A stretch of 59,894 bases of DNA. Source: a virus (taxonomy: Duplodnaviria; Heunggongvirae; Uroviricota; Caudoviricetes). Location of the stretch: the IMG/VR virus record IMGVR_UViG_2974697560_000001; one strand, given 5' to 3'. Under the pieces are notes generated by a model that did not search any database, had not been told where the DNA came from, and saw only the letters and a program-made list of their open reading frames with translations. Shown here one piece after another: positions 2,417 through 17,355 of the stretch (position 1 is the first letter of the stretch; each line of letters begins with the position of its first letter). Position numbers and translations under genes: made by a program.

Positions 2417-2857
2417 TCAGTACGCGGCGTCCAGGCAGGAACGCTCCCAGTTGGCCAGGTACATGCCGTCCAGCTTGGACACGTAGGCGTCCACGATGTC
2501 CTTCGAGTCCTTGAGACCCAGACCGGTCTTCTCGCGGAGCTGCTTGATGCACTGAATCTTCTTGTTGGAACCGACCTCACGGACGATGTCCTTGACCAAC
2601 TCCGCACCCTGCGCCTTGACACGCGCCTCGATGTCACGGAGACGGTTCAGCTCGTGGCTGGTGGGCTGCTCGGCGTCCTGCTTGCCGGAACGATAGCCAG
2701 CCTGGTAGCCATCGGCGTAGGACTTGTCCTCACGGTTCTGGAGTTCCCCAGCGTAGATGGCCTCGAACATGTTCACCAGGTCCATGGCCCGGTTGAGGCT
2801 CATGTGACCCTCGAAGTTGTGAAGGGAGGTGAGGAGCTGAGCGCGAAGGTCCGACAT
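2417..2857 (-). CDS. Protein with C-terminal ribosomal L7/L12 CTD-like domain
   Basis: GSNKKIQCIKQLREKTGLGLKDSKDIVDA aligns with the bL12 CTD motif KVAVIKAVRxxTGLGLKEAKDLVE. Confidence 0.8.
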   Translation of the reverse strand: MSDLRAQLLTSLHNFEGHMSLNRAMDLVNMFEAIYAGELQNREDKSYADGYQAGYRSGKQDAEQPTSHELNRLRDIEARVKAQGAELVKDIVREVGSNKKIQCIKQLREKTGLGLKDSKDIVDAYVSKLDGMYLANWERSCLDAAY

Positions 2858-2979
2858 GATGTTCTCCGTTTCTAGGGGCTCCTTGCCCCTTTCGATGTCT
2901 CTATCTTAGCAGTACCAAGGGCCCTGTGTCTACCGGTCATTTTTGTCCGGGCCCGACAGGGCCCCGAAGGGCCCTTCTG

Positions 2980-3420
2980 TCAGAACCTCACACCGACACC
3001 GGAACCGTCACAGGTCTCCACGATGCTCTTTGCGGTACGCAGGTCCAACGACGGGAAGTGAGCGCGCAGATGCTTGATGCACGCAATCTTGCGCTCCAGG
3101 TTGTAGTAGCTGAACTCACCGTTCGCCCAGATGGACGCACGCGCGACCAACTTGGTGTGGTCGTTCTCAGCGGTGAAGTTGCTCAGACGCTCACCGTGCG
3201 CCTTACCCTGTCCGTAGCCGTCCTCGAAAGCGGACTCCACACGCTTGTCCGCCTCCTTACGGGCCAGGTCCCAGGCGTTGTTCTCCACCTCGTTGACCCG
3301 CTCCAGGTGCGCGCTGTAGATGTAACCAGCCACCGTGAACGCCTTCTTCAAGCTCATCTTGACACCGTTGGCGTTGAAGATACGCATGATGCGGGCTTCG
3401 TCCAGGGTGAAGATGCTCAT
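2980..3420 (-). CDS. Second L7/L12 CTD-like protein
   Basis: RKIACIKHLRAHFPSLDLRTAKSIVE; same length and layout as its neighbour. Confidence 0.65.
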   Translation of the reverse strand: MSIFTLDEARIMRIFNANGVKMSLKKAFTVAGYIYSAHLERVNEVENNAWDLARKEADKRVESAFEDGYGQGKAHGERLSNFTAENDHTKLVARASIWANGEFSYYNLERKIACIKHLRAHFPSLDLRTAKSIVETCDGSGVGVRF

Positions 3421-3552
3421 GGTAGCCTCCAGTCTCAGGGAGCTTGTCTCCCTTTCGATGTCTTTAGTCTACATGACTAGTGAGGCAGATACAAGCCCTC
3501 TTCAAAGTGTCCGGGCCCGACACGGGCCCCAAAAGTCAAGGGCCCGGTAGGG

Positions 3553-17266: not shown

Positions 17267-17283
17267 ATCTCTATTTCTGTGAG

Positions 17284-17355
17284 AGCCCCATCTCGGAGTC
17301 GAACCGAGGACACTTCGTTACGAAGGAAGTATGTTTCCGTTAACACTAATGGGGC
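17284..17355 (-). tRNA. tRNA-Thr (anticodon CGT)
   Basis: GCCCCAT/ATGGGGC acceptor, TT-CGT-AA loop, CTCGG-TTCGACT-CCGAG T arm; no encoded CCA. Confidence 0.88.

Follow-up and report, generated by a model that had tools for sequence, protein, structure and literature searches.

The genomic stretch analysed here, a 59,894-nucleotide Caudoviricetes record in IMG/VR (IMGVR_UViG_2974697560_000001, referred to as the window throughout), raises the question of why a virus should carry two adjacent genes whose products resemble part of the ribosomal stalk protein bL12. A preliminary description of the sequence had proposed that these genes, here called P0001 and P0002, each encode a mimic of the bL12 C-terminal domain (CTD) that might serve as a decoy or adaptor for translation factors early in infection. 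The two adjacent open reading frames (ORFs) of 146 codons proposed there are present and lie on the minus strand. Sequence comparison indicates that their products have a significant and true homology to a single element of that domain, the alpha4-alpha5 hairpin on which translation factors dock. P0001 and P0002 are not ribosomal proteins. Neither has the N-terminal domain or hinge of bL12, and the CTD half formed by beta2-alpha6-beta3 is missing. In the following, we evaluate what this hairpin would do in the phage, which other functions compete with contact to translation factors, and how the relatives of these proteins constrain the choice.

Homology to the factor-docking hairpin of bL12

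The bL12 CTD is composed of three helices and three strands (PMC5887453) and provides a common docking site for IF2, EF-Tu, EF-G and RF3 (PMC10931766), with V66-V68, K70, L80 and E82 forming the contacts to EF-G (PMC5887453). Residues 92-125 of P0001 match positions 5-37 of the 67 positions in the Pfam profile PF00542, which represent helices alpha4-alpha5, at 34.3 bits relative to a cut-off of 25.9 (E 3e-8). Similarity to E. coli bL12 was also detected by hhalign (95% probability, 32 columns) and by BLASTP (44% identity across 39 residues), and a profile of the family matched solved bL12 chains at E 1e-7 over approximately 35-41 residues. PF00542 matches at E<=1 were found in 23 of the 31 family members, the best at 2e-10. 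The match of P0002 to the same profile (15.3 bits, E 0.025) falls under the cut-off, and the P0002 ortholog group on its own aligns only weakly with E. coli bL12 (hhalign probability 3.8%). The link of P0002 to bL12 therefore depends on its firm paralogy with P0001, as the two groups align with each other over 121 columns (hhalign probability 99%, E 1.9e-18) and both proteins match phrog_5819 over their full length (P0001 residues 1-146, E 1.3e-75; P0002 residues 2-146, E 1.1e-57). The PF00542 relationship anticipated in the preliminary description is thus established above threshold for P0001 and stays below it for P0002.

Individual residues were mapped by alignment to E. coli bL12 using the numbering of the mature protein. 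K100, I101, C103, I104, K105, L107 and R108 of P0001 correspond to K65, V66, V68, I69, K70, V72 and R73, its TGLGL turn corresponds to T76-L80, and L115, D117, K119 and I121 correspond to L80, E82, K84 and L86. P0001 keeps the equivalents of K65, V66, I69, K70, R73, L80, E82 and K84, with E82 represented by aspartate, and P0002 keeps those of K65, V66, I69, K70, R73, L80 and K84 as K111, I112, I115, K116, R119, L127 and K131. The six positions that had been singled out as contacts for translational GTPases (K65, V/I66, I69, K70, R73 and K84) are therefore retained in both proteins. Conservation within the phage family is focused on the same element: the hairpin is the most conserved block, and K100, I101, C103, I104, K105, L107, R108, L115, K119 and I121 are invariant or nearly so in an alignment of 30 members. 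The hairpin is as basic as in bL12 (isoelectric point 9.3-9.4 versus 9.5), and the whole proteins, at 5.9 and 8.6 versus 4.6 for bL12, are not acidic overall.

A basic pair of helices joined by a turn could also bind DNA or RNA in the manner of a helix-turn-helix (HTH) protein, for example in gene control. Apart from its charge, this possibility is favored by weak matches to the HU-type family PF00216 in 4 of the 31 members (best E 0.034), by a structure search with residues ~65-145 that returned low, generic winged-helix or HTH matches (RecX, TetR, StbA; Z 5.2-5.6), and by a DNA-related gene neighbourhood. However, these Z scores lie inside the noise range stated for the tool with helical models, no HTH family was significant in Pfam scans of P0001, P0002 and the 31 members, and the sequence similarity is specific to bL12, for which no nucleic-acid binding by the alpha4-alpha5 surface is known. 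We consider a nucleic-acid binder of this type improbable.

Half a domain on a helical scaffold

AlphaFold2 models were generated with the family alignment, and secondary structure was assigned by DSSP. Both models are all-helical with zero strands. The P0001 model (predicted local distance difference test score, pLDDT, 79.8) has helices at residues 2-15, 21-62, 67-95, 100-111, 115-131 and 136-142, with the hairpin as its highest-confidence part (pLDDT ~91), and the P0002 model (pLDDT 83.4) has helices at 8-17, 111-121 and 127-136 along with a single long helix at 24-102. Following alpha5 there are 15 residues in P0001 and 10 in P0002, compared to ~32 in E. coli bL12 that form beta2-alpha6-beta3, and the position of strand beta1 is occupied by the end of the long helix. 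With no strands and a tail too short after alpha5, the alpha/beta fold of the bL12 CTD cannot form. Overall, the proteins begin with a small, conserved helical hairpin, continue as a long polar helix that includes a GxxxGxxxG motif, and end in a three-helix module in which the last two helices are homologous to bL12. The phage proteins share with bL12 the alpha4-turn-alpha5 hairpin, its basic surface and the named contact residues, and lack the N-terminal dimerisation and uL10-binding domain, the hinge, beta1, beta2, alpha6 and beta3. The proposed CTD mimic accordingly stands for alpha4-alpha5 and fails for the domain as a whole, since the match to the 67-position Pfam profile extends no further than position 37.

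The absence of the alpha/beta fold bears directly on a second proposal of the preliminary description, in which a fold related to ClpS made these proteins candidate protease adaptors. The ClpS fold is related to that of the full bL12 CTD. The fold that ClpS and bL12 have in common is missing from P0001 and P0002, with no strands in either model, and the ClpS family (PF02617) was not among the Pfam matches of the 31 members at E<=1. An indirect connection to proteolysis exists in that an SSB-type tip, of a kind found on some relatives, activates ClpX in mycobacteria (PMC7847540). This proposal found no support, and a ClpS-like adaptor seems to us scarcely credible.

The N-terminal part of the proteins is relevant to whether they could be true stalk components that enter the host ribosome, either replacing bL12 or accompanying it, and shift factor recruitment toward phage translation. 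A viral bL12-domain protein has been detected, through one peptide, in E. coli ribosome fractions (PMC6375957), and the N-terminus is predicted to be a helical hairpin as in the bL12 N-terminal domain. Against this, the family of that domain, PF16320, was not matched by P0001 or P0002 at E<=10 or by any of the 31 family members at E<=1, and a profile of the N-terminal 50 residues gave an hhalign probability of 0.5% in a comparison with the single bL12 sequence of E. coli, and nothing at E<=10 in the PDB. A homolog search with E. coli bL12 yielded near-identical enterobacterial sequences only. These results agree with the preliminary description, which had recognized no N-terminal dimerisation domain. 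In addition, the bL12 equivalog model TIGR00855 scored P0001 at 29.8 bits relative to a cut-off of 84.4 and gave no match for P0002, a long helix takes the place of the flexible hinge, and a tagged viral bL12 failed to co-purify with ribosomes (Mizuno 2019, PMC6375957). A role in the stalk itself is thus very unlikely.

The helix that precedes the hairpin carries the GYxxG motif noted previously, as DGYQAGYRSGK in P0001 and DGYGQGKAHGE in P0002. It has weak matches to FliH/YscL models (TIGR02499, E 0.005; TIGR03825, E 0.01) that are far under the cut-offs, and one family member has a weak match to Yae1_N (E 0.011). The long helices were examined for heptads and hydrophobic moment, with no clear sign of a coiled coil, and dimerisation through the GxxxG helix is a guess on our part. 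Structure comparisons with the complete models provided no additional relatives: Foldseek with the P0001 model found nothing in the PDB at E<=1e-3 and no bL12 chain among the top 50, a wide VIA-align search reached a best Z of 6.5 with generic helices, a shape search with the P0002 model remained at TM<=0.37, an Atlas feature search gave no usable match, and a BFVD search returned family members only. Whole-model searches of this kind are dominated by the long helices, and a local hairpin match could escape them.

The hairpin is widely distributed outside this family. An exhaustive profile search with the family matched 3,727 proteins at E<=1e-3, and once ~35 full-length relatives are set aside, most of the best 150 matches contain the hairpin 3-7 times. 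Some of these contain full CTDs and others the half unit only (Pfam positions 8-36), carried on Pro/Ala-rich linkers and sometimes preceded by a zinc ribbon or a membrane helix. The bacterial repeat proteins (e.g. QSW21420.1 of Clostridium gasigenes, and DUF6793-type C-termini) share with the phage proteins a unit of ~30-40 residues in which a short helix is followed by the K-I-x-x-I-K-x-x-R...TGLGLKEAKD hairpin, with the difference that they have tandem copies on linkers, compared to a single copy set in a helical scaffold in the phage proteins. Tandem hairpins of ~30 residues, two to seven per protein and without the rest of the domain, were observed in P0046, P0049, P0055, P0073, P0133 and P0136, and the bacteria encoding hairpin-repeat proteins span several phyla, with Clostridium, a gammaproteobacterial metagenome-assembled genome and a myxobacterium among those named. 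At NCBI such proteins are named 'ribosomal protein L7/L12', and the gene neighbourhoods of two of them offered no lead to function. The hairpin is also common to at least 5 other PHROG families. A consensus of 249 hairpins keeps the same positions as bL12, a figure biased by the pattern used for extraction.

Relatives, tails and genomic setting

Full-length relatives are found solely in Streptomyces phages and phage-like metagenomic contigs, with 74 phage records matching P0001 and 35 matching P0002. At 95-98% identity, the region matches the left end of Streptomyces phages from cluster BE, genus Samistivirus (Sushi23, Peebs). Peebs, Sushi23 and others encode a protein 100% identical to P0001 that is annotated as hypothetical. 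The order of an Lsr2-like gene, two small genes, the P0001-P0002 pair and a DUF932 gene is kept even at ~45% identity. This stretch occurs twice in every matching phage record; in the nearest complete relative the copies are 121,975 bp apart in a genome of 133,047 bp with direct terminal repeats. Both genes thus lie within a terminal repeat, the length of which we infer to be ~11 kb, and for this reason each is present twice per genome.

Some relatives encode a single paralog. Lululemon (2361-2801) and PacManQ have the P0002 type only and Paradiddles (gp004) the P0001 type only, in each case between the DUF932 and Lsr2-like genes. The natural hybrids P0017 and P0040 combine a P0002-type N-terminus, including its 11-residue insert, with the TGLGLK hairpin of the P0001 type and with a tail of the DEPPF kind, which implies recombination between the paralogs. 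The single-paralog phages and the hybrids together argue that P0001 and P0002 are interchangeable modules of one function. An obligate heterodimer, which we had also considered, is ruled out by Lululemon and Paradiddles.

The DEPPF tail is the second variable feature of the family. Many P0001-type relatives terminate in Y-x-DEPPF, including the syntenic P0016 (L010-L012:4001-4438) and gp258 of phage Riptide (L013:2454-2939; ...Y-S-DEPPF). This pentapeptide exactly matches the tip at the C-terminus of S. coelicolor SsbA, where it is required for partner binding (PMC3616714), and on the mycobacterial single-stranded DNA-binding protein (SSB) the DEPPF tip activates ClpX (PMC7847540). In the phage proteins the tip follows a variable linker, and P0001 of the window ends in WERSCLDAAY, just short of the linker and tip. 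P0002 ends in GVGVRF, no other ORF in the window has an SSB-like tail, and neither window protein has an oligonucleotide/oligosaccharide-binding (OB) fold. The tails raise the possibility that the family acts in DNA metabolism or proteolysis, as an adaptor or decoy in which the hairpin is a generic interaction module and the target is the host SSB interactome or ClpX. The neighbouring genes, which encode Lsr2-like, ParB-like nuclease-domain, DUF932, HNH endonuclease and ThyX proteins, are in line with such a role, as is the lack of a canonical SSB gene in the nearest complete relative. In contrast, DEPPF is missing from both P0001 and P0002 of the window, which indicates that the tip is dispensable for the core function, and the conserved element of the family is the hairpin and not the tail. 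On balance we regard an SSB- or ClpX-directed role as possible but rather unlikely.

The coordinates of the genes and associated features are given in Table 1. P0001 and P0002 are paralogous and presumably separately transcribed genes, each in its own hairpin and promoter cassette. The unit flanking each ORF combines a GC hairpin and the palindrome TGTC-N7-GACA with a promoter-like site, whose -10 element is TAGACT or TAAGAT, and with a CATCGAAAGGG leader. In alignments the hairpin and palindrome recur 5' of gene 2, 5' of P0002 and 5' of the Lsr2-like gene. Both ORFs have a GGAG or GGAGG ribosome-binding site 6-7 nucleotides 5' of the ATG. The preliminary description had assigned a strong promoter to each gene; a promoter-like site of its own is found for each at the level of consensus, and the designation as strong is sustained for neither. 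The P0002 site was missed by the consensus scan, with its -35 element agreeing at 3 of 6 positions. The palindrome looks like a common operator of early cassettes. On the minus strand it reads TGTCGGGCCCGGACA, and it separates the upstream hairpin from each TAGACT-type promoter. Next to the pair, every relative examined has the DUF932 counterpart, which is 340 residues long in the related contigs L010-L012. The large set of tRNA genes that BE phages are reported to have must be located outside the 59.9-kb window.

Table 1. Positions of the P0001 and P0002 genes, their protein motifs and nearby features in the window
Feature	Position	Strand	Basis and remarks
P0001 gene, 146 residues	2417..2857	-	ORF; PF00542 E 3e-8; phrog_5819; paralog with the stronger bL12-hairpin match
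P0002 gene, 146 residues	2980..3420	-	ORF; PF00542 E 0.025; phrog_5819; diverged paralog
bL12 alpha4-turn-alpha5 hairpin, P0001 residues 99-125	2483..2563	-	hhalign, BLASTP, model and conservation
Diverged hairpin, P0002 residues 110-135	3016..3093	-	Loop one residue longer, glycines lost; model pLDDT ~90
DGYQAGYRSGK, GxxxGxxxG (GYxxG), P0001 residues 49-59	2681..2713	-	G50, G54 and G58 nearly invariant
DGYGQGKAHGE, GxxxGxxxG, P0002 residues 67-77	3190..3222	-	In predicted 79-residue helix; G68 and G72 nearly invariant
P0001 promoter-like site, TAGACA-N18-TAAGAT	2903..2932	-	TG before the -10; consensus scan and alignment with units 5' of neighbouring genes
P0002 promoter-like site, TTGTAT-N18-TAGACT	3466..3495	-	Read directly from the sequence, and alignment
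GC hairpin 3' of P0002	2960-2975	-	Read from the sequence and cassette alignment
TGTC-N7-GACA palindrome 5' of the P0001 promoter	2945-2959	-	Read from the sequence and cassette alignment
Terminator-like hairpin with T-rich tail, 3' of P0001	2378..2395	-	Same scan as for the P0001 promoter-like site
337-residue gene directly downstream of P0001	1210-2223	-	Syntenic counterpart is DUF932 (PF06067)
tRNA-Thr (CGT)	17283-17355	-	Sole tRNA gene in the window

The assignment of a bL12 label to this family is already in the literature and databases. The 2025 genome announcement of Riptide labels genes 258 and 259 'ribosomal protein L7/L12, C-terminus domain' (PMC12509530), and UniProt applies the automatic name 'bL12 C-terminal domain-containing protein' to the orthologs in Daubenski, Paradiddles, Jay2Jay and Coruscant. 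Riptide gp258 and gp259 (GenBank PV654398.1) are syntenic orthologs in the right terminal repeat, and Riptide resembles the window in having DUF932, the pair, the two small genes and the Lsr2-like gene inside a terminal repeat. The identical copies in its left repeat, genes 3 and 4, are annotated 'hypothetical protein', and both genes are likewise 'hypothetical' in the other BE records listed. Sequence identity is 38% between P0001 and gp258 and 51% between P0002 and gp259. The proteins differ in that gp258 has an extra linker and DEPPF tip that are lacking in P0001, and gp259 is without the GxxxG motif and GVGVRF tail of P0002. The Riptide label refers to a C-terminus domain, whereas the comparisons presented here demonstrate a half-domain only.

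Prior work has also described viral proteins of a similar type. Mizuno 2019 reported phage PF00542-like proteins that have the factor-contact residues, occur in non-ribosomal contexts and were acquired repeatedly, and proposed that viral bL12 domains are an interface for translation factors (PMC6375957). P0001 is comparable to these proteins in exceeding the PF00542 gathering threshold (34.3 versus 25.9 bits), and P0002 alone remains below it. The proteins in that study are from phages of Proteobacteria, and Streptomyces phages go unmentioned there (PMC6375957).

A proposed contact with host translational GTPases

The basic and hydrophobic surface of the hairpin would correspond to the docking face that bL12 presents to EF-G, EF-Tu, IF2 and RF3. 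Retention of this surface suggests that, outside the stalk, P0001 and P0002 engage translational GTPases of the host through a bL12-type interaction, a reading that we favor tentatively and would call plausible rather than probable. The proteins could act as competitors of the stalk, or as adaptors connecting a factor with a second partner, which would be held by the conserved N-terminus; either paralog would do the job alone. No phage-encoded GTP_EFTU family gene is present in the nearest complete relative, and any GTPase partner would therefore be host-encoded. BE phages carry other translation genes, with 39 tRNAs, a tmRNA and a uL24-like gene in Riptide (PMC12509530). The position in the terminal repeat and the promoter and hairpin cassettes indicate that the genes are probably expressed early in infection. 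The cassettes are of the early type supposed in the preliminary description, and early expression itself is deduced from this setting.

Several considerations weigh against contact with translational GTPases. The contacts of bL12 with the factors are weak and transient, and a monovalent soluble decoy would need to be abundant. A phage dependent on host translation gains little by blocking it. Just half of the bL12 CTD is present, and within the new three-helix arrangement the equivalents of V66 and I69 may be buried against the preceding helix, in which case their conservation could be structural. P0002 is without G77, G79 and E82, the last replaced by threonine, and has one extra residue in its loop. 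Around the pair lie DNA-related genes (Lsr2-like, ParB-like nuclease, DUF932) and none related to translation, and the DEPPF tip of the syntenic orthologs points to a different interactome.

A broader version of the GTPase proposal can be formulated from the distribution of the hairpin. The alpha4-alpha5 hairpin might be an autonomous, portable docking module for translational GTPases that large Streptomyces phages express early from both genome ends on a non-ribosomal helical scaffold, in some lineages joined to a copy of the host SSB tip, and that captures or re-routes host EF-G, EF-Tu, IF2 or RF3; the bacterial tandem-hairpin proteins, numbering in the thousands, would in that case form a class of off-ribosome tethers for GTPases that has gone unrecognised. 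We put this forward as speculation that is unlikely to be correct in full.

The present value of these results is mainly corrective, as the label 'L7/L12 C-terminal domain' overstates a similarity that covers half of the domain only. Functional studies of these Streptomyces phage proteins must take into account that a single paralog suffices, that hybrids between the paralogs occur, and that some relatives have SSB-tip tails. If the hairpin does bind translational GTPases off the ribosome, these proteins would become the first known case of phage factors acting on the handshake between the stalk and its factors, and would provide a minimal two-helix probe for that interaction. Such binding would also suggest a function for the very large set of bacterial 'L7/L12-like' repeat proteins.

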